Assembly (NCBI GenBank): GCA_043811375.1
Contig: JBDRNJ010000031.1
Location: forward strand, 1 to 64,000
Reading direction: 5' to 3'
From: a bacterium
GTDB lineage: Bacteria > Zixibacteria > MSB-5A5 > GN15 > FEB-12
Length of the DNA: 64,000 bases
Numbering within the stretch: position 1 is the stretch's first letter; every line of letters begins with the position of its first letter. The notes beneath the pieces are model-generated. The model saw only the letters and a list, made by a program, of their open reading frames with translations, had not been told where the DNA came from and did not search any database. The position numbers were made by a program, and so were the translations under genes. Shown piece after piece: positions 17,501 through 34,104 of the stretch.

Positions 17501-17678
17501 CCTCCGGAGCCATCCCATGGGCTTCCGTAAGAATCGTTACGGTTGGCGCTGTAAGGTCCGGGAATACATCGATAGGCATGTTTAGGGTGACTATCGTCCC
17601 CAGTATCAATAGGCCTGCTGCGGCAACCAGAACAATTAACCGGTTGTGTAAGCTGGCTTGCATGAGTTTGTCTAGCAT
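14580..17678 (-). CDS. CusA/CzcA family heavy-metal RND efflux permease
   Basis: 1032 aa; IDVFPDL, GILVDDGIIYVENV, RLSPILMT motifs. Confidence 0.92.
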   Translation of the reverse strand: MLDKLMQASLHNRLIVLVAAAGLLILGTIVTLNMPIDVFPDLTAPTVTILTEAHGMAPEEVEKLVTFPIETVVNGASSVRRVRSNSIQGLSTIWVEFDWGVDIYIARQIVNEKIQIVGNALPEGVDQPMMAPITSIMGEIMLVGLTADSTSPMELRTLADFAVARRIQSVPGVSQVLVYGGETQQYQVQVDPYKVAARGLTLDHVLKAVAESNINATGGVFVESGQEFLIRGLGRIQNIEDLKKTVITVENRIPVLIQDVAEVTVASAFKLGTASINNENGALLIIAKQPDANTLLLTEQILTRLEQLRPSLPSDVVMHTEIFKQSDFIEIAIENVTQSLKYGAILVTLVLFAFLMNFRTTVISVLAIPLSLVTAFLTLKVMGLSVNTMTLGGMAIAVGILVDDGIIYVENVYRRIRENAALLESDRRPFMRVVEAASSEIRGPMATATPIVSVVFVPLFFLSGVEGRMLIPLGAAYVVSVLASLLVAITVTPVLSSILLRKVGAGKHQESWLVRQLKYLYEPFLRYFLKHRGLIIGASLVLTIAAMATMPFLGRSFLPEFNEGTFNISMATVPGTSLEQSDQLGSMVEKILLSHDAVISTARRTGRTELDEHSLGSHAHEMEVQIDLSNISKTQLLEELRSQLSIVQGTNITIGQPISHRIDHMLSGTRAAIAVKLFGPDLYGLRQYAEEIKQEMEEVDGLVDIFVDQQTDVPQVRVQANREKMALYGLRPTDMDEMIDVAFLGVTTSQVYEGDQRFDLKVQYAPEHRGDLEAIKRSLIDVPTGGAIPLEVVADITVDRGPNYVSRENVQRKIVIQANVAERDLHGAVQEISQLIDDNVDLPKGYFVEMGGQFESEREATRTVTLFSIVSIVAILVLLYLLFGNFRHPILVMVNLPLALIGGILAILLTDGIMSIASLVGFITLFGIAVRNGIVMLSHYNFLIDREGKPIMEAVIQGSMERLSPILMTALTTGLALLPLAIAADKPGSEIQAPMAIVILGGLISATFLNLVVVPALFIKWGRKQPTSAAAQ

Positions 17679-17708
17679 TGCTTCACCTCTTTTTCGCCAT
17701 TTCTCGTC

Positions 17709-19238
17709 TTAATGTGCATGCCCATGTCCGATTTTGGCCGAAGTGGATGCGAGCTTGACATGATAACCGCCGGTCGTTACGACACGTTCGCCCGGCTCCA
17801 AGCCGTCAAGAATAGCTACATATCCCGCATAGTGCGGTCCTCTGCTGACTATTCTTTTTGTGAATGACTCCCCATCAGCCTGGACAAACACGACAGACAT
17901 GCCATTATCGTCGTAGAGGGCAGATGTGGGAACTGCGGTCGAAATGCTTCCTTCGCTGGAATACAATTCCACAGGAGAGGTTTCATTGATCCTCAAATAA
18001 TCATTCGTATTGCTCACTTCCAGGAGCACGGGAATGGTGCGCGTGGCCGGATCGAGGGCACCCCCGGTGGTGAGAACACGCATATCAGAGTTCGGGATGG
18101 CCCATCCTCCGGGCAGACCATCGGTCTTCACAAACGCTCCGACCGGACTTCCCAATTGATAGAAGTCTCTCTCATACACATTCACCTGTAACCACACTGT
18201 GGCGGGGTCTACGATGGACATCAGCTTGTCGCCAGAGCGAACTCGCTGTCCGGGACGAGCCTGCCACTCGACGATCTTTCCAGATATGGGTGCCTTAAGA
18301 GTTAGAGTGCCGTTTTTGCCACCGCTCGAAAGGGCCTCAAAGCCCGCTTTCATCGCCAAGTAATCGTCTCGAACGAGCTCAAACTCCCGTTCAGAGATAG
18401 CCTCGCGATCTTTGAGACGTTGCGCCCTCTCATAATCACGTTTCGCTTGCTCATACGCCAGATGCGAGGAGGCATATCCTGTGCCTTGTAATGGTGGTGT
18501 GATCGTAACCACGACGTCACCTCGTTTGACCAATGATCCCGGTAGCGCCAATTGGCTACCGTTACCCACATGCAAGATTCCATCGACAGGTGAAACTATC
18601 TCAACGTAGGAGTCGGGGCTGGGTAGCACTTCACCAATCGCCCACACCGATCGCTTGATCTCGCGGGTTTCAACCTCGCTAGTGGCAAAAGGAATTTTCC
18701 ACTGTTGCTCCATGAGGAAGCTTATCCCTCCACCAGTCTCACCCTCTTCCTGCGCAGGTATAGCGTCAATGGATGAATACACCTCAAAACCATCTATAAC
18801 GAACGAGTCGCGCGCGATTGGTCCCTCGTAAGTAAGATTGAGTCTGAGACTCTCGACATCCTTAAGTTCAACGGTTGGCGTGAAAATGCCTTCTCGAAGC
18901 AGATCAGTTTCCACTATTTCGAGCACGGATCGTGTTTCATTCATGAATGTTAGGGTGACTTTGCCTTCTCTGACAGGCTGAAAACCTTCAAGAATAGTAA
19001 GGTGAATAATAAACTTGCTCGGCTGGTTTGCCACCAGGAGAGGGTATTCCATGAACAATCCCATTTGGTCCGTAAATTCTGTCACCGAAACCGAGGGAGC
19101 CTCACCGTTATTCCCCTGGACGGCGGTTTCTGAGTTGTTCTGATCCGTCCTCCCTTCAGCAGGCTCACTACTTCCACTGGCAAAAGCCTGAGTTGCAAAG
19201 GCTAAAAGGAACAGAGCGATATATGCTGTAATCTTCAT
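17709..19238 (-). CDS. RND efflux periplasmic adaptor subunit (CzcB/CusB-like)
   Basis: Signal peptide, APISGKI, DPATRT, GLEPGERVVT, GHGHAH C-terminus. Confidence 0.88.
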   Translation of the reverse strand: MKITAYIALFLLAFATQAFASGSSEPAEGRTDQNNSETAVQGNNGEAPSVSVTEFTDQMGLFMEYPLLVANQPSKFIIHLTILEGFQPVREGKVTLTFMNETRSVLEIVETDLLREGIFTPTVELKDVESLRLNLTYEGPIARDSFVIDGFEVYSSIDAIPAQEEGETGGGISFLMEQQWKIPFATSEVETREIKRSVWAIGEVLPSPDSYVEIVSPVDGILHVGNGSQLALPGSLVKRGDVVVTITPPLQGTGYASSHLAYEQAKRDYERAQRLKDREAISEREFELVRDDYLAMKAGFEALSSGGKNGTLTLKAPISGKIVEWQARPGQRVRSGDKLMSIVDPATVWLQVNVYERDFYQLGSPVGAFVKTDGLPGGWAIPNSDMRVLTTGGALDPATRTIPVLLEVSNTNDYLRINETSPVELYSSEGSISTAVPTSALYDDNGMSVVFVQADGESFTKRIVSRGPHYAGYVAILDGLEPGERVVTTGGYHVKLASTSAKIGHGHAH

Positions 19239-19247
19239 CGTGTAATC

Positions 19248-20480
19248 CTATTCTTCAAAGTTCACGAGAGTCTCACCCGTGATTGTTTCCAATTGAAAAA
19301 GGTTCAGGTAGAATTGAGTCAACTGCCCGTAGTAGTGCTCAAGGCCGGCCACCTCTATTTGAATTGCGTTTAGGAGCTCATTAAGGGTCAACCAGCCTTC
19401 TTCATAGGAATACAAGAGATTGTTGAACTCCTCCGAATCCTCAAGGAAGTGTGGTGAAGCTAGTGCAAGAGATCCCTGCGAACCGGCAATCGATTCTGTA
19501 AGCGCCTGCACTTGACCAATGGCCTGAGTGCGGTTAAGTTGCATCTCGGTCCGAGCAATATCGCTCTCGATCCGGTACTTACGTGCCGTCGAACCGTTGC
19601 GATTGAAGAGCGGTAGGCTTAGTGAAACACCCGCCACATATCCGTCCACGTCCGGATCAATCTTCTTAAGTCCCGCATACACGTTGAGAGCCGGTATGAA
19701 CTTCCCCTTTTCAGCAGATGCGCGCTTGCGAAACGACTCTACCAAGAGCGACCTGGACATATAATCTGGCTGAGATTCTACCACCGCAGTGTAGTGCTCG
19801 ACCGGCTTCAAGTCGATCAATCCGAAACCGACCGGCGTGGCCAGTGTGACCACGTCATCGGGACCCAATCCCACATTGGCTCGCCAGAATGCTGAGAGCT
19901 CTTTTCTCTCCTGCAGAGCTGATTGGTGACTCGCGTTGAGAGATATTATCGCCATCTGGATGAGGTGTTCTTCTGCACCTGATAGATGCCCCTCGGAGTG
20001 TCTTGAGGTTGCCACATGTGAGGCATCCGAAAGGGCTTCTTTAAACCGCTCTAATCGCGAAAGATACTCATCAAGGAGTTGTAAGGCTACGTACCCGGAC
20101 TTCAACGTAGCCAAATGTGTTCGCCTGCTCTGCTCTTTCGTCAATTCAGCCGATTTGACGCGATCTTTCCAACTTGACCGCTTCTTTGAGTAGGCCCACG
20201 GTACCTCGACCTGTTTCCCAATTGTGATTTGGTATTCTTTGGCCTGGTCGACATCCTCACGATCATATGCGATTACTGGATTTGACCATTGCAGGTCTTC
20301 GTCTCGTTCGGCAAGAACCCTTTCGAACTCCTGCCCAATGATCTGGGCACGCGGGCTGTATTCCTGCGCGTGATTGTCCAGATCAGAAAATCTGATTGTC
20401 TTGGTCTCCGCCTGGGCGACTGAGATGAGAACACTCAGTATCAGCCCAGCGCGAAGAATCCATGATGCTCTGTCAAGCAT
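19248..20480 (-). CDS. TolC/CzcC family outer membrane efflux protein
   Basis: Signal peptide, GVSLSLPLFNRN, YEEG motif, operon position. Confidence 0.85.
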   Translation of the reverse strand: MLDRASWILRAGLILSVLISVAQAETKTIRFSDLDNHAQEYSPRAQIIGQEFERVLAERDEDLQWSNPVIAYDREDVDQAKEYQITIGKQVEVPWAYSKKRSSWKDRVKSAELTKEQSRRTHLATLKSGYVALQLLDEYLSRLERFKEALSDASHVATSRHSEGHLSGAEEHLIQMAIISLNASHQSALQERKELSAFWRANVGLGPDDVVTLATPVGFGLIDLKPVEHYTAVVESQPDYMSRSLLVESFRKRASAEKGKFIPALNVYAGLKKIDPDVDGYVAGVSLSLPLFNRNGSTARKYRIESDIARTEMQLNRTQAIGQVQALTESIAGSQGSLALASPHFLEDSEEFNNLLYSYEEGWLTLNELLNAIQIEVAGLEHYYGQLTQFYLNLFQLETITGETLVNFEE

Positions 20481-20967: not shown

Positions 20968-21114
20968 ATGTAGTCAAGTTTCTCAAATAGTCAAACAGAA
21001 TCCTACTCGTTATAAGGTTTGTAGCTCCCGTATGTGTCATATGTTCCAACATATTAGTTCGCACATAGTGAATTTGACCTTTTGAGTACCTTGACCATCT
21101 GGTATTATTGGTTC

Positions 21115-22182
21115 ATGGCTACTTCAGGTACTAAGACACGTGGTTCAGGTGCGTATGTAGTCTCGCTCGCTCTCGTCTCGGCAGCCTTGTTTGGGGCTGC
21201 CACCCCGGCAAGCAAGGCGGTGCTTGGAAACCTCACGGCATTCCAGTTAGCGGGATTACTTTACCTCGGTGCGGCCTTGGGGGTCCTAACTGTCATGATT
21301 CGAAAGCGGTCTTGGCGCCCGCCGTGGGCGATGACAGCCAAGAACCAACGAAATCTAATCGGAGCCGTCTTTTTCGGCGGCCTCCTCGGACCGGTGCTTC
21401 TACTTTTTGGCTTGCAAATGGCTTCAGCGACCTCCGTATCTATGTGGCTGAACCTCGAAATAGTTGCGACGGCGGTTCTGGGGAGGATGTTCTTTCACGA
21501 TCACTTAGGGCGTTACGGCTGGTTGGGCGTAGCAGGCATTGTGGCCACCGGAGCTTTGCTCAGTGTCGGAGAAGGTTTGGCTGGTCTTTGGGCTGGCCTT
21601 TTGGTTACGGCAGCTTGTACCTGCTGGGGGTTGGACAACCATTTTACTTCCCTCATCGACGGCATCACGCCCTCTCAAAGCACCTTCTGGAAAGGGCTTG
21701 TGGCAGGCTCAGTCAACCTGATATTAGGCCTCATTCTGCACTCTTACGATGCTTCTGTGACGATCACGGTGGGTGCGCTTGTTATCGGAGTGTTCTCGTA
21801 CGGTGCCAGCATTACACTGTACATCACCGCCGCTCAGGGAATGGGAGCCACTCGCGCACAGATGTTCTTCGCCAGTGCTCCATTCTTCGGAGTTGCTCTG
21901 TCGGCGATTGCTTTGGGGGAATCAATAACTGCTCTTCAATTGACCTCTGGCGTCTTGTTGGCCATATCACTGGCCGCTCTCTTTCGAGACAGGCACCATC
22001 ATGGGCATGTACATGACCCGATGGAGCATGAACACGCGCACCGTCATGATGACGAGCATCACGATCACGCTCATCCGGAACTCGCGTCGGGGACGCGTAA
22101 CTCTCACTGGCACGAGCATAATGTGGTCGAGCACGCCCACCCCCATTGGCCCGACCTTCACCACCGCCATCGGCACAGCTAA
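21115..22182 (+). CDS. DMT/EamA family transporter with His-rich C-terminal tail
   Basis: About 10 TM helices in two EamA repeats; HHHGHVH...HPHWPDLHHRHRHS. Confidence 0.85.
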   Translation: MATSGTKTRGSGAYVVSLALVSAALFGAATPASKAVLGNLTAFQLAGLLYLGAALGVLTVMIRKRSWRPPWAMTAKNQRNLIGAVFFGGLLGPVLLLFGLQMASATSVSMWLNLEIVATAVLGRMFFHDHLGRYGWLGVAGIVATGALLSVGEGLAGLWAGLLVTAACTCWGLDNHFTSLIDGITPSQSTFWKGLVAGSVNLILGLILHSYDASVTITVGALVIGVFSYGASITLYITAAQGMGATRAQMFFASAPFFGVALSAIALGESITALQLTSGVLLAISLAALFRDRHHHGHVHDPMEHEHAHRHDDEHHDHAHPELASGTRNSHWHEHNVVEHAHPHWPDLHHRHRHS

Positions 22183-22351: not shown

Positions 22352-24160
22352 TTAGGCTCTCTCCAACTGCAGGAAATGCACGTAACCTGAAGCACCGCCA
22401 ACGAGGATCGTGACGCCATCAGGGCAGACCGCACAGCAGTACAGACTTTCATCAATATCGAAATTCATCAGAATCTGCCCCGACTCCAGATCCCAAACCT
22501 TCAGGGTCTGATCAGAAGACCCGGAGATGACACGGCCGCCGTCGGGCGTCACCGCCAGGGCATTGACCCAACCCGTGTGCCCCTCCAGGGTGCGGATGAC
22601 TTGCCCCGACTCCAGATCCCAAACCTTCAGGGTATGGTCCCAAGACCCGGAGATGACACGGCCGCCGTCGGGCGTCACCGCCAGGGCATTGACCCCACCC
22701 GTGTGCCCCCTTAGACTCATTAACTCACTGCCCCCTGCCTGCGTGATGCTGGGGTGCAATAGGCGTAACCAAGCCTGTTTGGCCTCTGACGCCTGATCAC
22801 GAAGGTTAACGATGTCCGCTTCCCTGCTTGAAAAAAGACGCGCATAGAGCTGTTCGGCCAGTTGATCCTTGTCCGTCATGAGAATGTGAGCTGCCAGCCG
22901 CAGGGCCGATTGTATAAGGCGCAAAACAGAATCATCCGGGAAGAAGTCGTAGTCGGATATCAGGCTCTGTAAATCCGTGCTGTTCAGCTTTGCTTGCAGC
23001 CATTTGAAATTTTTCAATAAGCGCCGCAGGGTCTCTGCACGATTAGCGCCTTGGAGATGGTAGCCGACCCATTGACAGGCGTATTGGTTGGGAAGGTTGT
23101 AATGATCTTTCCAGGAATCCGCCAGTTTGCCGTGCACAGAGTGCCCATCCGCCATCTGTGAGATAAGATAGGTTCGAATAACATCGTGCGGGCGAAGAGT
23201 TTTCTTATTCAGGTCAAGATTCTGCAGCAAAGAAAGGTTGGCCAGCCGCAACGCTAAGTCTTCTGTGTCAAGCTCGTCCAATCCCCATAATTGACTCACT
23301 ACATCAAGCGGTACGTTTTCATCCTCAGGAAAGATACCCAGGTGCAGGTAGCGTTCACGTCCCTTGGCAGGCAACAGCTCCAAACTGGCACCGACAGTCA
23401 GATCGATTGCATCATTACGATGTTCAGGATTGTGGCGGTTGAAAGCATCAATCCCCCGCTTGTCGAGCGCCTTGTTGAGGTACGCCACCGCCTCGTCCGC
23501 GCTGACGCCTCGTACAATGCGTTCTTTCAGAGCACTACCAGCCAGGGAAAGTAAGAGCGGCCACTCTCCCATACGAGCTGACAACTCACGGTACGGCTGC
23601 AAATCATGGGGACGGCTTTTAAGCTGACCTACCAACATCTCCGTGGCCTCGTCTGAAGTCATCTCATCAACCGAGACCAGTGGCATTCCGGTAACCAGAT
23701 CGCTCCGCCGAGTCGTGACCATCACAGTGCAACCGCCTACCGCTCGCCTGAGACACTCCAACTCCCTGCGGTTCCAGATATCGTCCAGCACAACCAGGCA
23801 ATCCTTACCAGCCACCTTACCAGCCACGGTATTTATGGCATCCTCTTCGTCCACAAAGGGGGGACGCTCACCGGTCAGCGCCGCGTACAACTTCGCGAGT
23901 GTACCCACTACATCCGGCTTCTCACCAAGCGTGACCTAGAGAATACCATCATTGTAAGCAGTGATAACTTCTTCATTATGACAAAGTGCTGCCGCCAGGG
24001 TAGTCTTGCCGAATCCACCGGCACCATACAGAGCAGTTGTGATGACAACCGGATTCTCCCGATTTTTGTCCAATACTAAGCTAAGAAGCTGGTCGTACTC
24101 ATTTGGACGCTCCACAAAACCCTCCGGTGGCTCCGGAGCCATATAGGGTACAAGTCCCAC
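22352..24160 (-). pseudogene. Apaf-1-like NB-ARC/WD40 (STAND/NLR) protein interrupted by an in-frame TAG
   Basis: GAGGFGKT P-loop in 23936-24160; GIL*VTLG (TAG at 23936-23938 where W is expected); same frame continues with LVVLDDIW, helical domain and WD40 repeats. Confidence 0.8.
22476..22709. repeat. Near-identical 126-bp-period tandem repeat encoding WD40 units
   Basis: TGCCCCGACTCCAGATCCCAAACCTTCAGGGT at 22476 and 22602. Confidence 0.9.
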
Positions 24161-24386: not shown

Positions 24387-27300
24387 ATGCCTAAACACCC
24401 CGTCGAGACTTACCTCAGTGAGCTTCATGAAATTCGTGCCACCGGCGGTGGCTCGGCTGAAATATCTTACTATGGTGCTTTGGAAGCACTGCTAAACGAG
24501 GTGGGAAGGAAGCTTAAGCCCAAAGTTCGTTGCGTTCATAATCTGGTAAATACCGGTGCAGGGTTCCCCGACTTTGGGTTATATACGGCAAATCAATTCC
24601 AGAAAGCCAAGAATGCCGAACCCTTACCGGGTCAGCTGCCGGAACGCGGCGTGATTGAGGTCAAACCCACCGACGATGATTCCTGGCTCACGGCAAAGGG
24701 GACACAGGTCACCAAATACTGGGGGCGTTACGGACAGGTACTGGTCACCAACTACCGCGATTTCGTCTTTATCGGTCGAGATGAAAGAGACAAACCAGTG
24801 AAGCTGGAGACATTTCGCCTGGCCGACACGGAGAACGCCTTCTGGGCAGCTACAACTCACCCGCGAAAGACGGCACAGGATAAGGGTGACAGGCTGATTG
24901 AGTTCTTGTGTCGCATCATGCAGCACGCTGCTGCGATTACTGATCCGGAGGACTTAGCCTGGTTCCTGGCGTCGTACGCGCGTGAAGCTAAGGCACGGAT
25001 TGAAGCCGTGAGCGATCTGCCTGGTCTTGCTGCTTTGCGCGGAGGGCTGGAAGAGTCACTTGGCTTGAGATTCGAGGGCGAGGAAGGTGAACACTTCTTT
25101 CGTGCAACATTGATTCAAACCCTTTTCTACGGCGTCTTTTCATCCTGGGTCCTGTGGGCACGCGATAACGGCACCAAAGAAACTGACCGGTTCAACTGGC
25201 ATGAGGCGGCATGGAATCTCCATGTTCCTATGATTGCCGGCTTATTTCAGCAGATTGCCACACCGAATAAACTTAAGCCGCTGGGGTTGGATGAGATCCT
25301 CGATTGGACCGGCATGGCTCTTAACCGTATAGTACGAGACAAGTTCTTTGAGAAGTTTGAGGAGGAGCAGGCAGTCCAGTATTTCTACGAGCCGTTCTTG
25401 AAAGCCTACGATCCTGATCTGAGAAAAAAACTCGGCGTCTGGTACACGCCACAGGAGATTGTCAAGTACCAGGTTGCACGTGTGGATACTGTGCTCCGAG
25501 AGGAATTAGACATCGAAGACGGCCTGGCTGACCCCAGCGTCTATGTGCTCGATCCCTGCTGCGGTACGGGGGCGTATTTGGTGGAGGTGCTGCGCAGCAT
25601 TCACCGGACACTGAAGGAAAAAGGTGCTGATGCTTTGACCGCCCAGCAGCTCAAAAAGGCGGCAATGGAACGTGTCTTCGGATTTGAGATTCTCCCCGCG
25701 CCTTTTGTTGTGTCACACCTTCAACTGGGTCTTATGCTCAGGACTCTCGGAGCGCCCCTTTCTGAGAATGGTAAAGAGCGCGTCGGTGTCTATCTCACAA
25801 ACGCCCTGACAGGATGGGAGCCGCCCAAAAGCCCCAAGGACCAATTGGCCTTCCCGGAACTGCAGGAGGAACTCGAAGAGTCTGGAAAAGTCAAACGTGA
25901 AGTCCCGATCTTGGTAGTCCTCGGTAACCCACCCTACAACGCCTTTGCCGGAACAAGCCCTGCAGAGGAACGGGGCTTGGTCGAGTCTTTCAAGGATGGA
26001 CTCACTAAACCGGTCAAGGATGGCGGCTGGGGGATAAAGAAGTTCAACCTCGATGACCTCTATGTCCGCTTCTTCCGCATCGCCGAGCGGCGGATTGTCA
26101 AGAGTGGCATGGGAGTAGTCAGCTATATCTCGAACTTCTCTTACCTTGGCGACCCATCATTCGTGGTCATGCGCCAACGATTCCTTGATGAATTTGACAA
26201 GCTCTGGTTCGATTCCATGAACGGTGATAGTCGGGAGACTGGCAAGAAGACTCCTGACGGGAAACCCGATCCCAGCGTCTTCTCCACAGAGCAGAGCCGC
26301 GTAGGCATTCGAGTAGGCACGGCGATCTGCACAATGGTTCGCAGGCGCAAGCGTTCAAGAATGCCCACGGTTCGCTTCCGCCACTTTTGGGGAGCGACAA
26401 AGCGAGCAGATGTCCTGAACAGCTTGAAGGTTAAGAAGTTCAATAAGGACTACGACATCTCCGGTCCTAATACAGGAAACAGGTTTTCGTTTCGACCCCA
26501 GGTTGTCGACGCTCATTATCTGTCATGGCCAAAGCTTACTGCGCTGTGTGGCGAAGCACCCAGTAACGGCTTGATGGAGAAACGAGGCGGTAGCCTCATT
26601 GATGTGGAGAGACAGGCTCTTGAAAGGCGTGTGACGGCTTACTTCGATGCGAACCTTGATTGGGAGGGGTACAGGTCACTCGGCTACGGGCTTGAGAAAC
26701 CGAAGGCAGGTATTGATGATCCCGAGAAACTGAGGAAGAAAGCAATAGCAGCAGAACCATATAAGCCACAACATTTGGTCCGGTATTCGGTACGCCCCTT
26801 CGAAATACAGTGGGCTTATTACTGCGCCGTCCCAGGCGTTTGGAATCGTGCGCGACCGAACTACAAGGAGCAATGCTGGGAGGGAAACACATTCATCATA
26901 ACGCGTCCTGCCGGAGTTGCGAGTGTTGAAGGAACTCCGCTGTTTTTCACAAGCACCATCGGTGACAACGACTCCCTGCGGGGACATGCCTACTACTTCC
27001 CGGTGCAATTTCGCCCGGCCACCAGGAAACGAAGGGCAGACAGCGCCTCTGGCAGCTTGGCTCTCGAAATCAAGCCGCAACGGGCCGTGGCCGCCAACCT
27101 CTCGAACAACGCACGCGCATACCTGAAATCCTTCGGCATCTCCAACCCGGACATGAACGCAGAGACAGCGAGCCTCATCTGGATGCACGCGCTGGCCATC
27201 GGATACTCGCCTGCCTACCTTTCCGAAAATGCCGATGGCATCCGCCAGGACTGGCCGAGAATCCCGCTTCCTGACTCGAAGAAAGCACTCCTGGCCTCTG

Positions 27301-27881
27301 CCAAGCTCGGCAACCGGGTCGCAGCCTTGCTCGATACAGAGAGGGGCTTGTCCGGCGTCACATCTGGTAGGCTTCGCGCAGAACTAAAGACAATGGGGAT
27401 CGTCTCGCGTGTTGGTGGAGGTAGCTTGACTGCGGAGGAAGGCGGCTTCGGCTTGACCGCCGGTTGGGGACACGCTGGAAAAGCTGGCGTCACGATGCCC
27501 GGCAGGGGGAAGATCGAGGAGCGGGCCTATACGGGTGAGGAGCTTGAAGCGTTTAACGCTGGGGCAAAGGGACTCGGTCTTACATTGAAGCAAGTGCTTG
27601 AGCATCTTGGGAAGAACACGCTCGATGTTTATCTGAACGACATGGCGTACTGGAAGAACATTCCAGTCAACGTGTGGGACTACCATATAGGTGGCTACCA
27701 GGTCATCAAGAAGTGGCTCAGCTACCGTGAGAAAAGTCTTCTTGGACGCTCCCTGAAAATGGAAGAAGTCGAATATGTCACCGACACGACACGTCGCATC
27801 GCAGCGATCATCTTGTTGCAGCCAACCCTTGACACCAACTATGAAGCAGTGAAATCGGATACATACGTGTGGAGCGACTGA
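24387..27881 (+). CDS. Single-polypeptide restriction-modification enzyme (type IIG / type ISP-like N6-adenine methyltransferase)
   Basis: N-terminal PD-(D/E)xK-like FPDF...IEVK; DPCCGTG motif I; GNPPY motif IV; C-terminal type ISP-like specificity region (WDYHIGGYQVIKKWLSYR); no helicase motifs seen. Confidence 0.85.
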   Translation: MPKHPVETYLSELHEIRATGGGSAEISYYGALEALLNEVGRKLKPKVRCVHNLVNTGAGFPDFGLYTANQFQKAKNAEPLPGQLPERGVIEVKPTDDDSWLTAKGTQVTKYWGRYGQVLVTNYRDFVFIGRDERDKPVKLETFRLADTENAFWAATTHPRKTAQDKGDRLIEFLCRIMQHAAAITDPEDLAWFLASYAREAKARIEAVSDLPGLAALRGGLEESLGLRFEGEEGEHFFRATLIQTLFYGVFSSWVLWARDNGTKETDRFNWHEAAWNLHVPMIAGLFQQIATPNKLKPLGLDEILDWTGMALNRIVRDKFFEKFEEEQAVQYFYEPFLKAYDPDLRKKLGVWYTPQEIVKYQVARVDTVLREELDIEDGLADPSVYVLDPCCGTGAYLVEVLRSIHRTLKEKGADALTAQQLKKAAMERVFGFEILPAPFVVSHLQLGLMLRTLGAPLSENGKERVGVYLTNALTGWEPPKSPKDQLAFPELQEELEESGKVKREVPILVVLGNPPYNAFAGTSPAEERGLVESFKDGLTKPVKDGGWGIKKFNLDDLYVRFFRIAERRIVKSGMGVVSYISNFSYLGDPSFVVMRQRFLDEFDKLWFDSMNGDSRETGKKTPDGKPDPSVFSTEQSRVGIRVGTAICTMVRRRKRSRMPTVRFRHFWGATKRADVLNSLKVKKFNKDYDISGPNTGNRFSFRPQVVDAHYLSWPKLTALCGEAPSNGLMEKRGGSLIDVERQALERRVTAYFDANLDWEGYRSLGYGLEKPKAGIDDPEKLRKKAIAAEPYKPQHLVRYSVRPFEIQWAYYCAVPGVWNRARPNYKEQCWEGNTFIITRPAGVASVEGTPLFFTSTIGDNDSLRGHAYYFPVQFRPATRKRRADSASGSLALEIKPQRAVAANLSNNARAYLKSFGISNPDMNAETASLIWMHALAIGYSPAYLSENADGIRQDWPRIPLPDSKKALLASAKLGNRVAALLDTERGLSGVTSGRLRAELKTMGIVSRVGGGSLTAEEGGFGLTAGWGHAGKAGVTMPGRGKIEERAYTGEELEAFNAGAKGLGLTLKQVLEHLGKNTLDVYLNDMAYWKNIPVNVWDYHIGGYQVIKKWLSYREKSLLGRSLKMEEVEYVTDTTRRIAAIILLQPTLDTNYEAVKSDTYVWSD

Positions 27882-28107
27882 TTGAATGATGCCAAACTCG
27901 ATACCTCCGTTCATGAGCGCGCGTACTAAGGTTCTTCTTGTTTGAGACGAGCTACCGCCTGAGGGTGGTTTCTGGAAACTCAGTGGGTCAAAACTACTGG
28001 TGAGTTTAGGATTATGACTGCTTCTCCGCTCAGAATCAGATTGAGTGCTCGATTTGTGATTGTCAACCAACTGACAACCTGCTATTCCAGAGGTAGGAGG
28101 TAAGCGT

Positions 28108-28887
28108 ATGGGACATATCCGACTCGACCGACTACCGAAGACCAGGCGTTGGAAAGAGGTTATTGAGTTACTTCACCAGGGCAGGTCCATTGACGAGTTG
28201 GCGCGGGCAACATTCTACGCCGCTCAAACGGGTTTGTCTCGAATACCCATTGATGCCGGCTTCACTCAGACCCTTACCGTCATATTTGGTTTCATTGACG
28301 CTCTCCAATCCAAAACTCCAGTTACCAGTTTGCGTCAAAAAGGCTTTGCCGTGCCGACGGATGCTTCACTATTTGACTATGTCGGTAGCTTCAAGGCGCG
28401 AGCCGAGGACGCAGCAGCGGCTGTCCACGCGCGATCCGATATCGCTGAAATCGCACGGGATAGTTTCTCGCAAGTTCTGCTGAAATACGCCGGTTCATCG
28501 TTGCAGACTCTCTTCGGCGTCGATTCAACTGATGCGAAACAAGCTTTGCGATCCAACCTCAAGGGGAAGCCACTCGGCTCGACTATGCACGAGTTCTTCG
28601 CCACCTTCACTCAAAGGTATCTCAATTACTACTTGGGTCGCGAATTGCCTAATCACGTTGGGACCGGCAAGGCGTTTTCAAATGTGGATGGGCATTCGGA
28701 GTTCAACAAGGCGTTTGACCTCCATGTCAGGCAGACAGTGCGGATAGCCGACGAGTTCACTCCGGGTTGGTTTGGCAAGGCACGATATGAGGAGAGGCTC
28801 TCGCATAAGGACGTGTCTCGCTTTGCCCATACAGCCTTCAAGAAGATTCGTAGCGAATTTCGGCGAGGTGGAGAGGCTAATGGATGA
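28108..28887 (+). CDS. Hypothetical helical protein coupled to a QueC-like gene (starts MGHIRL)
   Basis: AGGAGG RBS; 259 aa; 8-nt overlap with the next gene. Confidence 0.8.
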   Translation: MGHIRLDRLPKTRRWKEVIELLHQGRSIDELARATFYAAQTGLSRIPIDAGFTQTLTVIFGFIDALQSKTPVTSLRQKGFAVPTDASLFDYVGSFKARAEDAAAAVHARSDIAEIARDSFSQVLLKYAGSSLQTLFGVDSTDAKQALRSNLKGKPLGSTMHEFFATFTQRYLNYYLGRELPNHVGTGKAFSNVDGHSEFNKAFDLHVRQTVRIADEFTPGWFGKARYEERLSHKDVSRFAHTAFKKIRSEFRRGGEANG

Positions 28888-30712
28888 ACCGGTGGACATC
28901 TGGTGCGGTCCGGAGTTACTGCCGAGAAGTTTCAGTCGAAGGCGCACAGTCCTCCTCAACACAGTCCCCGATTTCCACAACGTCAACCTCCGGATTAAGA
29001 ATATCACAAAGAAGCTCGCCAAGAATCTGTCTCCGGTAGTCCTCGATCTCCTCGAAATCGCCAGCTACGTTTATGCGGCGGATCAATCGGTCCGTCGCGG
29101 GGGTAGGACGCTACGGGGAGACGGCAAAGACTGGCGCAGGGAGTTTGTGTATCACATTCCGGTTCGGCGTCTTGACCTGTGGCAAAGCGAAGAAACATCT
29201 GAAGCTCTTGTCAATCTACTGACCTTCCTTTCAGATGATTTCTATGAGTTCAAGTTTCGAGAGTTGACCAGGGAAGTTGATCCTCAGACATACATTGATT
29301 TTGACGAAGGCAGACCGTGGTTTGATGCCAACAAGGTCATGCTGTTTTCAGGTGGACTCGACTCCCTGGCCGGTCTATGTGAGAGCGTGAAGGACGACAA
29401 TCAGAGAATCGTTCTTGTGAGTCATCGCCCGGCACCGCAAACAGACCATTTGCAGAGAAAACTACTGGCTGATTTCACAGGGTTGACCGAAAGCCAGAAG
29501 CGTCTGTTGCATGTGCCGGTCTGGATAAACAAAGCTGAGAAACTCACCAAGGACACGCACCAGCGAACCAGATCATTCCTGTATGCTTCATTGGCAGCCT
29601 CGCTGGCTCATATGCACAATCTGTCAAAGGTGTACTTCTACGAGAACGGGATTACCAGTTCGAACCTGGCTATTGCGCCATCGGCTCTTGGAGCTCGCAC
29701 CAGCAGAACCACGCATCCGCAAGTTCTCAAGGGCTTTAGCAGACTGCTGTCAGTAATCTTCAATCAAGATTTCTCTGTCGACAATCCGTTCTTCTGGAAG
29801 ACGAAGGCGGATATCGTCAAGATCATAAGGGATTGCGGAGCGAAGGATTTGATTCGTCACACGAGCAGTTGTAGTCATGTTAGATCAGGCAACCCATTGG
29901 GCAATCACTGCGGTGTTTGTTCCCAGTGCATAGGCAGACGGTTGGCGATTCTGCACAACTCCGCGGAAGCCGATGATCCGGAAGAAATGTATCGGGTCAG
30001 GATGCCTCTGGACCCAATAACCAAGGACATTGAGCGAGCCATGTTGGAGCTAATCATCAAAGCGGCGCGGGACTTCGAGAGTGCCGATGTGGTCAGTTTC
30101 TTCGGCCGTTACGGGCAGGCGATGGCGATTGTGACTGCGCTGGACATGAAATCGGACCCGGCCGCAAACAGGCTCTTGGAGCTGCACAAGCGCCACGGTC
30201 AGCAAGTGTGCCAGGTACTCCAGGACATCGTTGAAACCCACGGAGGACTGGTGGCGCGTGGAGGTGTCCCGGCGAACTCCATGCTAAGCATGATAGCTGA
30301 GCAACCAACCAAGACGCCCGCTGTGCCAAAAGGCTGTATGCCCATTTCCTTGCCGGAGGATACTGTCTGGGAAGACATCACCGTTGAAATTGTCGGCAAC
30401 GATGCGGCCAAGATATTCATCGGCGATCAGTATCATGCAGTAACGGCATTTGACATGGGATTCAAGGATCACAAGAAGAACTTACCCAACCGCATTTGGG
30501 ATCTTCTTTTTGACTTTGCTGAAGCTGGCGGGACCCTGGCATGGAGTTCGGAAGAAAGAACGGGGCACTGGTACCATAAGGACTTCCAAAGGCTCAGAAA
30601 CACCCTCAAAGCGTTCTTCGGTCTGACTGAGGACCCTCTGGCTCCATATGACAAAAAAGTAGGCTACCAAACGCGCTTCAGTATTCTTTACGACCGCACT
30701 GCAAAAACCTGA
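28880..30712 (+). CDS. QueC (7-cyano-7-deazaguanine synthase)-like / QatC-like PP-loop enzyme with N- and C-terminal extensions
   Basis: LFSGGLDS, QRTRSFLY, SRTTHP, NPFFWKTKADIV, SCSH...HCGVCSQC; ATG 28880 after GGAGAGG. Confidence 0.82.
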   Translation: MDEPVDIWCGPELLPRSFSRRRTVLLNTVPDFHNVNLRIKNITKKLAKNLSPVVLDLLEIASYVYAADQSVRRGGRTLRGDGKDWRREFVYHIPVRRLDLWQSEETSEALVNLLTFLSDDFYEFKFRELTREVDPQTYIDFDEGRPWFDANKVMLFSGGLDSLAGLCESVKDDNQRIVLVSHRPAPQTDHLQRKLLADFTGLTESQKRLLHVPVWINKAEKLTKDTHQRTRSFLYASLAASLAHMHNLSKVYFYENGITSSNLAIAPSALGARTSRTTHPQVLKGFSRLLSVIFNQDFSVDNPFFWKTKADIVKIIRDCGAKDLIRHTSSCSHVRSGNPLGNHCGVCSQCIGRRLAILHNSAEADDPEEMYRVRMPLDPITKDIERAMLELIIKAARDFESADVVSFFGRYGQAMAIVTALDMKSDPAANRLLELHKRHGQQVCQVLQDIVETHGGLVARGGVPANSMLSMIAEQPTKTPAVPKGCMPISLPEDTVWEDITVEIVGNDAAKIFIGDQYHAVTAFDMGFKDHKKNLPNRIWDLLFDFAEAGGTLAWSSEERTGHWYHKDFQRLRNTLKAFFGLTEDPLAPYDKKVGYQTRFSILYDRTAKT

Positions 30713-30895: not shown

Positions 30896-31165
30896 TTGTG
30901 GTCGAGGTCCGGAAGGTGCCTTCAACGCCAATCTGCCTTCCGGACCTTTTTTGCTTTGGAGCTGGATTTGGCACTTGTTTCCAAAGATTCGTGGCAAGAA
31001 GGGGAAGACCCGCCCCGGCCGGAGAAGAACCGTGTCGAGTTCGTGGCTTTTCAAGGTCGTCAGGTAACGCAGGTTGAATACGCGGAAATCTGCCGGAATC
31101 TGGCGGAGTACTTTGGCATCCTCCGAGCGTGGCTGGAAAAGGAACGTAGCGGTGAAGAAGAGTAG
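30896..31165 (+). CDS. Possible small hypothetical protein upstream of the integrase
   Basis: Plausible amphipathic C-terminal helix (YAEICRNLAEYFGILRAWL); start uncertain. Confidence 0.3.
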   Translation: MWSRSGRCLQRQSAFRTFFALELDLALVSKDSWQEGEDPPRPEKNRVEFVAFQGRQVTQVEYAEICRNLAEYFGILRAWLEKERSGEEE

Positions 31166-31217: not shown

Positions 31218-32327
31218 GTGAAAACAGTGCAAGTGAATAGCAAAAATGAGAAGATCAAGAGGAAGTACTTCAGGTGGTTGAGGGAGGCAAACGGCCTGTC
31301 GGAGCTAACTGTCTGTGCTGTAGAGAAAGCGATCTGGCTGTACGAGGACTTCACCAATCACGGTGACTTCGCGGGATTCAACCAGAGCAAAGCTGTCAGG
31401 CTGAAGAAATGGCTGCTGAGCAGAACCTACAGAGGAAAGCCAGTCTCGATCACCACAGTATATCACTACCTGCGTCATCTTAAACGGTTTTTTGTCTGGT
31501 TGTCTGGCCAACCTGGCTACAAGTCGAGGATAAGTTTAGACAGCGTCTCGTACTTGTCGCTGGAGAAAAAGAAAGTACGAGAGGCAACCGCACCTAAGCG
31601 AGTGAAGTATCCTTCCTTGGAGTATGTCCGGAATCTTGCTGATTCTATCGATGTGAGAAACGAGATTGATCAGAGAGATCGAGCGCTGATTGCATTCCTG
31701 CTTCTGAGCGGAATGAGAGACAAGGCCGTCAGTACTCTCCCCATCGGTTGTTTTGATACCCAGACGCTGGAGATTCAGCAGGACCCGGTAGCAGGCGTTG
31801 ACACCAAGTTCGGGAAATCCTTCATAAGTGTTTTGTTCCGCTTTGATGACAAGCTTGTTGAGTATGTGATCAACTGGGTCAAGTACTTGACAGAGACGAA
31901 GCTGTTCGCCTCCACTGATCCACTGTTTCCGCGGAGCAGAGTGGAACAAGTAGAGGGTGGTTTGACTTTCATCTCGCGGCAGGTTGAGGGAGTGTACTGG
32001 AAAGGGGCTGGTAGCATCAGACAGATTCTGAAGGTTCGCTCGGCAAAAGCAGGCCTGAATTATTATCACCCTCACTCGTATCGCCATACGGCTGTGAGTC
32101 TGGCTATGAGGTACTGCCGTAACGCTGAGGAAATCAAGGCAGTAAGTCAGAACTTCGGTCATGACTACATCGGTACTACGATGGTCACCTACGGGACACT
32201 GGACGACTTCAGAGTAGAGGAGATCATTAGAGGAATGGATTTTTCAGCCGGTTGCTGCAAGGTGAACCAGAATCAGGTGATCGAGGATGTGCTGAGACAG
32301 CTTGAAAAACTGAAAAAGAACTCTTGA
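31218..32327 (+). CDS. Tyrosine recombinase/integrase
   Basis: RDRALI..SGMR, TKFGK, HPHSYRH, NFGH..MVTY catalytic pattern. Confidence 0.88.
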   Translation: MKTVQVNSKNEKIKRKYFRWLREANGLSELTVCAVEKAIWLYEDFTNHGDFAGFNQSKAVRLKKWLLSRTYRGKPVSITTVYHYLRHLKRFFVWLSGQPGYKSRISLDSVSYLSLEKKKVREATAPKRVKYPSLEYVRNLADSIDVRNEIDQRDRALIAFLLLSGMRDKAVSTLPIGCFDTQTLEIQQDPVAGVDTKFGKSFISVLFRFDDKLVEYVINWVKYLTETKLFASTDPLFPRSRVEQVEGGLTFISRQVEGVYWKGAGSIRQILKVRSAKAGLNYYHPHSYRHTAVSLAMRYCRNAEEIKAVSQNFGHDYIGTTMVTYGTLDDFRVEEIIRGMDFSAGCCKVNQNQVIEDVLRQLEKLKKNS

Positions 32328-32362: not shown

Positions 32363-32557
32363 ATGGCTAAGAAGGATTTGATAACAAAGCTCGAAGAGTT
32401 TCGGTTGGAGAACAGGATCACTCAGACCGAACTGGCGGATATGATGGGAGTGGCATTCGTAACCGTCAATCGGTGGCTGAACGGTCATCAGTACCCGAAC
32501 CGGATTCAGGAGTACCACATCGAGAAGCTCCTATCTTCTAAGGGACGCAAGCGATGA
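32363..32557 (+). CDS. XRE-family helix-turn-helix protein
   Basis: ITQTELADMMGVAFVTVNRWLNG; ATGA overlap with the recombinase. Confidence 0.85.
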   Translation: MAKKDLITKLEEFRLENRITQTELADMMGVAFVTVNRWLNGHQYPNRIQEYHIEKLLSSKGRKR

Positions 32558-34104
32558 AGTGCGTGATCTATGCCAGGGTCTCGTCGAAAGAGCAGGAGCG
32601 CGAGGGCTTTTCAATTCCGTCACAACTGAAACTCGTGCGAAAATACGCCCGTGAGAACAACCTGGAAGTGGTGCAGGAGTACATCGACGTGGAAACAGCC
32701 AAGGCCACGGGGCGAACTGGATTCGGCGAAATGTTGGCATACATCAAGGCACCTATGCACGAGTGTCGCGTAATTCTGGTGGAGAAGACAGACCGCCTCT
32801 ACCGCAATATCAGGGACTGGGTCACTTTGGACGAGTATAATGTTGAGGTTCACTTCGTCAAAGAGAACTTCATTCTTTCAAAGGATTCAAAGTCGTCAGA
32901 GAAATTTCTTCACGGCATCAAGGTCCTGATGGCCAAGAACTACATCGACAACCTCTCGGAGGAAGTGAAGAAGGGAATGCGTGAGAAAGCCGAGCAGGGT
33001 GAATGGCCCAACAAAGCACCCTTGGGCTATCTGAACAACAAGGAAACCCACCTGCTTGAGGTTGATCCGGACCGTGCTCCAATAATCGCACAGCTTTTTG
33101 AATTGTACTCTACTGGACAGCATTCCATCACAACTTTACACCAAAGAGCAAAAGAGCTGGGCCTTAAGTACAGAAACTCGAACCGGTATTGCAGCCGAAG
33201 CAACATCGAGAGAGTTCTGAAGAACCCGATATATGCCGGTCGATTCGTATGGAAAGGCACCACCTTCCGGGGAATCCACGCACCGATAATATCTGAGACG
33301 CTGTTCGAAGAGGTCCGGGCGCGGTTCCGTAGGAGCGGCAAATCCAAGGCCAACACTCGGAAGTTTGCTTTCAAGGGACTGCTCACTTGTGGCTACTGTG
33401 GCTGTGCTATCACTGCCGAACTCAAGAAAGGGAAGTACGTCTACTATCGGTGCACTAACGGCAAGGGTAAGTGCAAGCAGCCGTACGTTCGCGAAGAGAA
33501 GCTTGCTGATACTCTTGCGGAAGTCGTTATTCGAGTGCGTATTAGCTCGTCCCAAGCAGGAGAGATAAGAGAGGCTCTGAGGGCCAGCTTCGAAACAGAA
33601 AAGGGATATCGGACGAAAGAAGTCGCCAGGCTGAAGCGTGAACAGGCGCGACTCCAAGGCCACCTTGATCAGACATACCTGGATAAGATTGAGGGACGAA
33701 TTGACACCGAGTTTTGGAGGAAGACGCACGATAGATGGATCAGTGAGCAGAACTTGGTATCAAGCAGGATGGAGGAATTGACGCGCGCCAACAAGAACTA
33801 CTACGAACAGGGCGTCGATTTCTTAGAACTCGCCCAAGCAGCCCCCTCGTTATACCTTAGCCAGACAATCGACGAAAAAGCCAAGCTGTTGCGTACGCTA
33901 CTTTCGAACTGCACGATGAAGGGGGCAACCCTTTGTCCCACATACAACAAACCCTTCAACTTGGTCGCTGAAGGGGGCGCAGGTGACAAAAAGCTGGGAG
34001 ACTGGGATTCGAACCCAGATTCTGCGGTCCAGAGCCGCATGCCCTGCCATTGGACTATCTCCCAGTACCTTAAGACAAATCGGCGACTGCCGCCAAATTC
34101 TTAG
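32554..34104 (+). CDS. Large serine recombinase (resolvase + recombinase + Zn-ribbon + coiled coil)
   Basis: YARVSS catalytic motif, DRLYR, APLGY, NPIYAG, HAPII, CGYCG..YYRC; last ~37 codons are the antisense of tRNA-Gln and flank. Confidence 0.93.
   Translation: MKCVIYARVSSKEQEREGFSIPSQLKLVRKYARENNLEVVQEYIDVETAKATGRTGFGEMLAYIKAPMHECRVILVEKTDRLYRNIRDWVTLDEYNVEVHFVKENFILSKDSKSSEKFLHGIKVLMAKNYIDNLSEEVKKGMREKAEQGEWPNKAPLGYLNNKETHLLEVDPDRAPIIAQLFELYSTGQHSITTLHQRAKELGLKYRNSNRYCSRSNIERVLKNPIYAGRFVWKGTTFRGIHAPIISETLFEEVRARFRRSGKSKANTRKFAFKGLLTCGYCGCAITAELKKGKYVYYRCTNGKGKCKQPYVREEKLADTLAEVVIRVRISSSQAGEIREALRASFETEKGYRTKEVARLKREQARLQGHLDQTYLDKIEGRIDTEFWRKTHDRWISEQNLVSSRMEELTRANKNYYEQGVDFLELAQAAPSLYLSQTIDEKAKLLRTLLSNCTMKGATLCPTYNKPFNLVAEGGAGDKKLGDWDSNPDSAVQSRMPCHWTISQYLKTNRRLPPNS
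33994..34064 (-). tRNA. tRNA-Gln(CTG), CCA not encoded
   Basis: TGGGAGA/TCTCCCA acceptor stem, TGCGG-CTCTGGA-CCGCA anticodon arm, CTGGG-TTCGAAT-CCCAG T arm. Confidence 0.95.

Follow-up and report, generated by a model that had tools for sequence, protein, structure and literature searches.

A natural two-gene QatBC-type module on a mobile island of a Zixibacteria genome, a candidate for anti-phage defence by acylation of a partner protein

Work on the anti-phage system QatABCD poses two questions, namely which group QatB receives from QatC and by what route the phage is stopped (PMC13279940, PMC13376578, PMC13639016). An engineered QatBC pair protects by itself against lambda-vir (PMC13279940), and only about a third of the genes in the QatC cluster (“Cluster 2” of PF06508) adjoin qatA or qatD (PMC13329287). 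Full-text searches, which did not extend to the supplements of PMC13329287 and of the structural papers, found no description of a natural stand-alone family in which a partner protein starting Met-Gly-His (MGH) accompanies a long QatC. Here we describe such a pair, gene A and gene B, in a 64,000-nucleotide stretch of DNA from a bacterium of the Zixibacteria (contig JBDRNJ010000031.1, positions 1 to 64,000, of assembly GCA_043811375.1), which we refer to as the window. We consider it likely, with some reserve, that the pair is a self-contained, mobile QatBC-type anti-phage module in which B acylates Gly2 of A, using a donor that is probably not 7-carboxy-7-deazaguanine (CDG). A two-gene form bears on both questions and takes QatA and QatD out of the problem.

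The pair and its features were located as follows; “B” with residue numbers refers to the product of gene B.
28095..28100, forward strand: AGGAGG ribosome-binding site of gene A, read from the sequence, 7 nt ahead of the ATG at 28108.
28108..28887, forward strand: gene A (P0001), a 259-aa open reading frame (ORF) for an all-helical QatB-like partner, the putative substrate.
28108..28152, forward strand: N-terminal tail of A, residues 1-15, with the family-conserved pattern M-G-H-x-R-L-x-x-L-P-x-T/S-x-x-W.
28880..30712, forward strand: gene B (P0002), 610 aa from the ATG at 28880, a PP-loop enzyme of the QatC family that carries an additional domain at its C-terminus.
29348..29365, forward strand: PP-loop SGGLDS, the ATP pyrophosphate-binding motif, B 157-162, invariant in the alignment.
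29699..29719, forward strand: loop T-S-R-T-T-H-P, B 274-280, with S275 and T277 at the positions of QatC T278 and T280.
29870..29929, forward strand: four-cysteine zinc motif of invariant C331, C344, C347 and C350, followed by R353-R354.
30026..30298, forward strand: B 383-473, the helical extension that follows the QatC core on its C-terminal side, on which A is predicted mainly to dock.
30368..30709, forward strand: extra distal domain, B residues about 497-610, which canonical QatC lacks.
30906..30950, forward strand: terminator-like hairpin after gene B, read from the sequence, with an 11-bp GC-rich stem followed by TTTTTT.

The product of gene A starts MGHIRLDRLPKTRRW, and the junction of the two genes, ATGGATGA, is an 8-nt overlap with GGAGAGG close upstream. 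An initial annotation of this DNA had reported a 259-aa MGHIRL ORF overlapping a 610-aa PP-loop ORF by 8 nt, and we confirmed its coordinates together with the motifs that it quoted for B (SGGLDS at 157-162, RTRSF at 229-233, SRTTHP at 275-280 and CSH..CGVCSQC at 331-350). A consensus scan of the window for promoters and terminators returned no more sites than were found in shuffled sequence; it missed the hairpin at 30906..30950, the loop of which is longer than the scan permits.

Several lines of evidence place B in the QatC family. The PADLOC QatC model (PDLC02214), which carries no curated cut-off, matches residues 44-366 of B at 1.6e-49, and the best PDB sequence matches of B are the QatC chains 9vlk_A (1.1e-23) and 9zee_B (2e-21). 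The NCBIfam QatC model NF041925 matches with an E value of 3.3e-55 and 187.6 bits, under its cut-off of 280; the QatC proteins of two canonical loci, L088 and L089, score 472 and 313 bits by the same model. The motifs that are specific to QatC (D..R..WxR, DxW/YxxxF, RxRxxxF/Y, ExG, HP, P(x)4TK and a Cys4 zinc site with RR; PMC13329287) are represented in B by D68, R73, W85, R87, DFYEFKF, R229, R231, Y235, E255-N256-G257, H279-P280, PFFWKTK, C331/C344/C347/C350 and R353-R354. Most of these residues are invariant in 54 aligned family sequences, with spacers unlike the E. coli pattern, and the cysteines with R353-R354 match the QatC motif CGxCxxC..RR (PMC13329287). Also invariant are S157, G158, G159, D161 and S162 of the PP-loop (54 of 54), R276, H279 and P280, and, in the family alignment, the four cysteines. 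N- and C-terminal extensions of the QatC type flank the QueC core, the C-terminal one, B 383-473, aligning with its counterpart in solved QatC. Judged by its sequence, B is a complete QatC with about 115 additional C-terminal residues, and the agreement among models, motifs, extensions and PDB matches upholds its earlier description as a QatC-like enzyme.

In canonical QatC, invariant threonines (T278 and T280 in the P. aeruginosa protein) stand where QueC and Cap9 have a deazaguanine-binding Tyr/Asp pair (PMC13279940). At the corresponding columns of the B family, which we equated with the QatC positions through a phmmer alignment to 9zee_B, residue 275 is Ser in 29 and Thr in 25 of the 54 sequences and residue 277 is Thr in 36 and Ser in 18; neither column contains Tyr or Asp. 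This pocket matters for the choice of donor, which is discussed below. It might still be asked whether B is simply a canonical QueC, that is, a 7-cyano-7-deazaguanine synthase, as the source records label its relatives and as a weak match to the Pfam QueC family (5.8e-9) would allow. That identity is effectively refuted. Against the QueC equivalog model TIGR00364 B reaches 34.4 bits, far from the cut-off of 150.3; it has the motifs and extensions of QatC; its pairing with A is kept in 74 of 80 loci; and substrate would be wanting in a host that has no match to QueD or QueE. In addition, QatC did not complement an E. coli queC deletion (PMC13329287).

The identity of A came from its predicted structure. 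Gene A has no match in Pfam, PADLOC, NCBIfam (E<=1), PHROGs or the PDB sequences, and the QatB model NF041924 has no match anywhere in the host genome. In precomputed annotation the relatives of A lack a Pfam family, whereas those of QatB have PF28083. The model of A (predicted local distance difference test score, pLDDT, 83.5; predicted template modelling score, pTM, 0.83) consists of ten helices preceded by disordered residues 1-10, and its best PDB match by Foldseek is QatB, 9y01_A, with a probability of 1.00 and template modelling (TM) scores of 0.55/0.64. Helical proteins can reach such scores by chance. We nevertheless take this match to be real because all remaining PDB rows have TM scores below 0.3, the match covers the full length, and the top match is the known partner of QatC. 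An hhalign comparison of the A family with QatB from canonical loci was not significant (probability 6%, E 0.006), the QatB alignment being narrow (of its 17 rows, 15 share at least 69% identity with the first row, and one shares 27%). On the strength of the model, then, A has the ten-helix fold of QatB, and its relation to QatB is undetectable at the level of sequence.

Conservation of the N-terminus of A bears on its proposed role as a substrate. For these counts, 81 A-family ORFs (those of 80 loci and the window) were aligned to the family profile, 9 of which are cut at contig ends or shortened. Gly2, which the initial annotation had singled out as the modified residue, is present in all 72 members that keep their N-terminus, preceded by Met in 71 and by a Val-coded start in one. 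The same 72 sequences have H3 in 70, R5 in 63, P10 in 65 and W15 in 69 cases. The disordered tail of A is only about 10-12 residues long and starts MGH rather than MGTS, which is the start of canonical QatB in L088 and L089.

We predicted the structure of the A-B complex, each protein being supplied with its alignment. The interaction score ipSAE was 0.89, 0.90 and 0.89 in three runs and 0.00 in all three controls; of 157 solved complexes 116 attain the mark applied to such predictions, as do 2 of 215 mismatched pairs. Contacts agreed among the three runs to at least 92%, and the pLDDT of the partners was at least 80. Part of the ipSAE may reflect likeness to the solved QatBC structures, to which the identity of the pair is only 10-23%. 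On the side of A the predicted interface involves residues 1-11 together with the helices near 86-140 and 170-197, and on the other side residues 76-88, 115-121, 227, 258-277 (including S275 and T277), 332, 348-352, 383-433 and 461-475 of B. In this prediction the interface mirrors that published for QatBC, in which loop N265-H282 of QatC takes part along with its C-terminal helices (PMC13279940). The initial annotation had proposed to look for the N-terminus of A in the active site of B. In the prediction, residues 1-11 of A are placed on B beside the catalytic loop, and B residues 273-275 and 277, at the loop T-S-R-T-T-H-P, touch A.

To follow the pair across genomes, we used a word-indexed protein search, which found 82 relatives of A, and a scan of 185,579 species genomes, which found 145; 80 of the 145 species-genome loci were kept for the analysis of pairing. 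A B-like ORF lies immediately downstream of A in 74 of the 80, usually with an overlap of 4-14 nt, so the co-inheritance that had been put forward for checking is seen in many phyla. Carriers include Ignavibacteria, Zixibacteria, Acidobacteriota, Planctomycetota, Alphaproteobacteria, Verrucomicrobia, Dehalococcoidia, Omnitrophica and others. As for the loci that have no B, less than 450 nt of contig remain in L006 and L038 and 775 nt in L066, L073 and L079 carry a shortened A, and L080 has 2.5 kb of space and still no B. Over 58 complete pairs, the pairwise identities of A and of B are correlated (Spearman rho 0.65 over 1653 pairs), a value that none of 200 label permutations reached. The pairing of A with B is far beyond chance. 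A search with the enzyme returned 5018 proteins at E<=1e-5, metagenomes included; among the best 120 of these, nearly all have 600-660 residues and are labelled 7-cyano-7-deazaguanine synthase or hypothetical protein. Among environmental bacteria the family is common, and the curated QatB and QatC cut-offs miss both of its proteins.

With the fold of QatB in A and a full-length QatC in B, the two genes do not stand apart from Qat, and the earlier suggestion that it is a system apart from QatABCD has to be withdrawn. We therefore regard it as a divergent stand-alone QatBC core, that is, a natural two-gene variant of QatBC. A separate observation concerns another QatC relative, the 455-aa ORF of locus L092 (G072:C39), which scores 129 bits with NF041925 and has no SGGxDS match. 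Its neighbours differ from those of the pair, with a 180-aa ORF upstream and a 389-aa ORF resembling helix-turn-helix (HTH) proteins downstream, and it may be a further QatC-derived module.

By analogy with QueC, Cap9 and QatC, B as a PP-loop ATP pyrophosphatase would adenylate a carboxylate donor. Removal of the initiator Met would expose the Gly2 amine of A, which would attack the adenylate, leaving A with an N-terminal amide adduct. The body of A would dock on the QatC-specific loop and the C-terminal helices of B, and its tail, GHxRLxxLPxxxxW, would thread toward the catalytic pocket. What the in silico analysis itself shows are folds, motifs, a conserved pairing, the genomic context and a predicted complex; we infer both the catalysis and the modification by analogy.

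Which adduct A would receive depends on the donor. Taken literally, the initial annotation would have B join a deazaguanine, namely 7-amido-7-deazaguanine (NDG) made from cellular CDG, to Gly2 of A in the manner of Cap9. Its choice of residue is supported by the invariance of Gly2 and the predicted placement of the tail on B, but the deazaguanine part fits the pocket and the host poorly, and we now think NDG an unlikely adduct. At 95% completeness and 0.6% contamination, the host assembly contains no canonical QueC, B itself being the best PF06508 match, no match to QueD, QueF or YhhQ, and no match to QueE by two models that recover matches in 9-10 of 14 control genomes; the earlier statement that queD and queE are missing, made for the window, thus holds for the whole assembly, as it does for CD-NTase genes. 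Because it has Tgt and QueA (contigs C4 and C60, Tgt being on C4) with no match to QueC, QueD, QueE, QueF or YhhQ, the host is apparently a salvager of queuosine precursors, and from its gene content it looks to be without an evident source of CDG. QueD is present in 37 of 50 other carrier genomes, as the NDG proposal would have it, and absent in 13. Eleven of these 13 have no QueC above the cut-off and ten have no QueE-like match, the other three having only partial matches of 20-23 bits; the completeness of the carrier genomes is unreported, and absences from metagenome-assembled genomes (MAGs) are soft. Two cultured isolates, Aquamicrobium soli (L054) and Flavimaricola marinus (L077), have none of QueC, QueD and QueE.

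Published experiments fall on both sides. Two groups saw neither binding of CDG by QatC nor CDG-dependent activity (PMC13279940, PMC13639016), and intact-mass analysis of E. coli QatBCD gave no NDG modification (PMC13639016). Liquid chromatography-tandem mass spectrometry, in contrast, detected NDG on an N-terminal peptide of QatB upon co-expression of E. coli QatBCD (PMC13639016). This peptide, like the membership of B in the QueC superfamily, speaks for NDG, and it counts against a donor other than CDG. Because of the pathway absences, the Ser/Thr pocket in place of the Tyr/Asp pair and the published failures with CDG, we conclude that the donor in this host is probably a compound other than CDG. 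Hosts that lack the deazaguanine pathway, the two cultured isolates included, make the identity of the tag directly testable.

The extra C-terminal domain of B may bear on the second question, the output. In the model, residues about 497-610 form three strands, two helices and one hairpin (pLDDT about 82-93); they have no Pfam match at E<=0.1 and no PHROG match, and their look-alikes in the Atlas are unnamed clusters, some with phage members. BLAST sorts the distal parts of B homologues into separate groups of 25, 23 and 6 loci and small ones, the window falling into the group of 6. In other lineages the end of B is recognisable. The B homologues of L035 and L063, both from Planctomycetota, end in Trans_reg_C, an OmpR-type winged helix, above the Pfam cut-off in each case. 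A DpnII-MboI nuclease-like end is found in L068 (30.7 bits, cut-off 27) and, under the cut-off, in L026 (20.9 bits); the homologues of L026 and L068 come from a Verrucomicrobiae MAG and a Dehalococcoidia MAG. The distal domain of the window recurs widely: 1599 cluster representatives match it at E<=1e-3, and 154 do so at E<=1e-10. Proteins sharing it are 86-632 aa long, and in 133 of 148 at most 30 residues follow it; Pfam partners among the 148 are QueC (4), TPR (2), a Response_reg receiver (1) and a transglutaminase (1), the rest being mostly unannotated. As far as such searches tell, it is a promiscuous, mostly C-terminal, unnamed module. Comparison by hhalign with the Trans_reg_C-type tails of L035 and L063 gave a weak match (probability 17.6%, E 0.0014, 46 columns) which, together with the order of secondary structure elements, hints at a winged helix and serves as a lead only.

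The distal domain, exchanged elsewhere for a winged helix or a DpnII/MboI-type nuclease domain, probably connects the module to nucleic acid, and in doing so it would stand in for the absent QatA and QatD. The recognisable DNA-directed domains fused to B in some lineages point to the site of output. A bolder proposal, which we hold only tentatively and think doubtful as it stands, is that the widespread MGH family provides immunity with its two proteins alone. Gly2 would carry an acyl tag other than a deazaguanine, many hosts being unable to make CDG, and the swappable C-terminal module (an unnamed wHTH-like domain, an OmpR-type winged helix or a DpnII/MboI-type nuclease) would serve as built-in DNA sensor or effector in place of QatA and QatD. 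Were this so, it would bring to light both the chemistry of the real donor and the output of Qat-type defence.

The surroundings of the pair in the window include these genes.
22352-23908, reverse strand: NB-ARC/APAF1_C/WD40 ORF of 518 aa, resembling NOD-like receptors (NLR-like), by Pfam.
24387-27881, forward strand: Type IIG restriction-methylase of 1164 aa (PADLOC REase_MTase_IIG, 4.3e-85; Pfam N6_Mtase and Type_ISP_C).
31218-32327, downstream of the pair: tyrosine integrase.
32554-34104, downstream of the pair: large serine recombinase.
33993-34064, on the strand opposite to the recombinase ORF, which runs over it: tRNA-Gln(CTG).

The layout of integrase, recombinase and tRNA suggests an element integrated next to tRNA-Gln. 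No second copy of the 3' part of the tRNA was found in the window at up to 3 mismatches, and no convincing direct repeat flanks the island. An RND (resistance-nodulation-division) efflux operon at 14580-20480 on the reverse strand (AcrB-family pump, HlyD-type adaptor and outer-membrane factor) and an EamA transporter at 21082-22182 form its apparent left chromosomal flank. The description of an island with restriction-modification and NLR genes proved correct, with the qualification that the NLR-like gene (22352-24150) is interrupted: one in-frame stop divides an upstream P-loop, GAGGFGKTT, from the 518-aa ORF, so that the gene is a pseudogene or else the assembly is in error there. Two of its WD40 units (22476-22583 and 22602-22709) lie 126 nt apart and are 95% identical over 108 nt. 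The restriction-methylase is on the same strand as the pair, 226 nt upstream of gene A, and is not kept beside the pair in other loci.

Clustering of ORFs over the 81 loci found no conserved third gene. Once A, B and shadow ORFs are set aside, serine recombinases (32 of 81 loci) and tyrosine integrases (17 of 81) are the most frequent neighbours, and genes for a primase/helicase, AAA_24, a ParB-like methylase and sigma/HTH proteins recur. These neighbours, and the DNA-binding winged helix at the end of some B variants, are what one would expect if the pair were not anti-phage at all and served its mobile element, through a modified regulator protein, in maintenance, exclusion of competitors or control of excision. 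The mobile context does not discriminate between these readings because defence systems typically ride such elements as cargo. We applied PADLOC to 93 proteins encoded near the pair in 14 loci, the first 14 of 35 with at least 16 kb, and obtained a match at E<=1e-10 within about 6 kb in 10 loci and none in four; the scan was made without a control set. The neighbours are Cas I-E (two loci), type III methylases (two loci), HmaA/HmaB, ZacA/ZacB with a methylase and a DrmD fragment, a DRT UG13 reverse transcriptase with HEC-05, and PDC-S41; a pVip-like match in L018 and a RecD-like match in L029 are weaker and ambiguous. These defence genes, and the fact that the closest characterised relatives of the pair are defence proteins (PMC13279940), make a role confined to the element improbable. 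We infer from the same evidence that the phenotype of the module would be anti-phage defence. New here are the carriers that lack the deazaguanine pathway, cultured isolates among them, the DNA-directed C-terminal domains and a confident predicted complex of enzyme and substrate.

Compared with canonical QueC, B shares the Rossmann-like PP-loop core, the SGGxDS motif and the four-Cys zinc site; unlike QueC, it lacks the QueC catalytic signature and has added N- and C-terminal extensions, and its host is without the upstream pathway genes. Type IV CBASS (10.1101/2025.04.06.647259; PDB 9nto) resembles the pair in joining a QueC-superfamily PP-loop enzyme, Cap9, to a partner with an N-terminal Gly acceptor, proposed or proven. 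It differs in having a CD-NTase, the TGT-like Cap10 and an effector, whereas the host genome has no SMODS match and its only match to TGT (tRNA-guanine transglycosylase, on C4) scores 510 bits with the housekeeping family.

The closest system is QatB-QatC of QatABCD from E. coli and P. aeruginosa (PDB 9y01/9y02, 9vlk and 9zee; PMC13279940, PMC13376578, PMC13639016). Canonical loci such as L088 and L089 show the order A-B-C-D, whereas the locus of the pair has neither QatA (a KAP NTPase) nor QatD (TatD). In keeping with the earlier report that tgt, KAP ATPase and TatD genes are missing from the window, the only matches in the host are on contigs C4 (Tgt), C90 (KAP) and C78 (TatD); the single KAP-family NTPase is at C90:1143-2351, in an 884-aa ORF (145 bits). 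With no QatA, QatD or CD-NTase and no conserved third gene, the pair is self-contained. Unlike QatB, A is missed by NF041924, has no Pfam match at E<=1 and starts MGH with a tail of 10-12 residues in place of MGTS with a disordered tail of 30-90 residues. Unlike QatC, B falls under the NF041925 cut-off and has the lineage-variable extra C-terminal domain. The pair is also often found on integrative elements, and some of its hosts lack the de novo queuosine pathway. The likenesses extend to the core of both proteins. As in QatBC, the partner gene is upstream and translationally coupled; B has the full QatC architecture of N-extension, QueC core, zinc site and C-extension, with the PP-loop, the QatC motifs and hydroxyls instead of the Tyr/Asp pair; and A has the ten-helix fold and the invariant Met-Gly start of QatB, docked in the prediction through the same QatC loop and helices.

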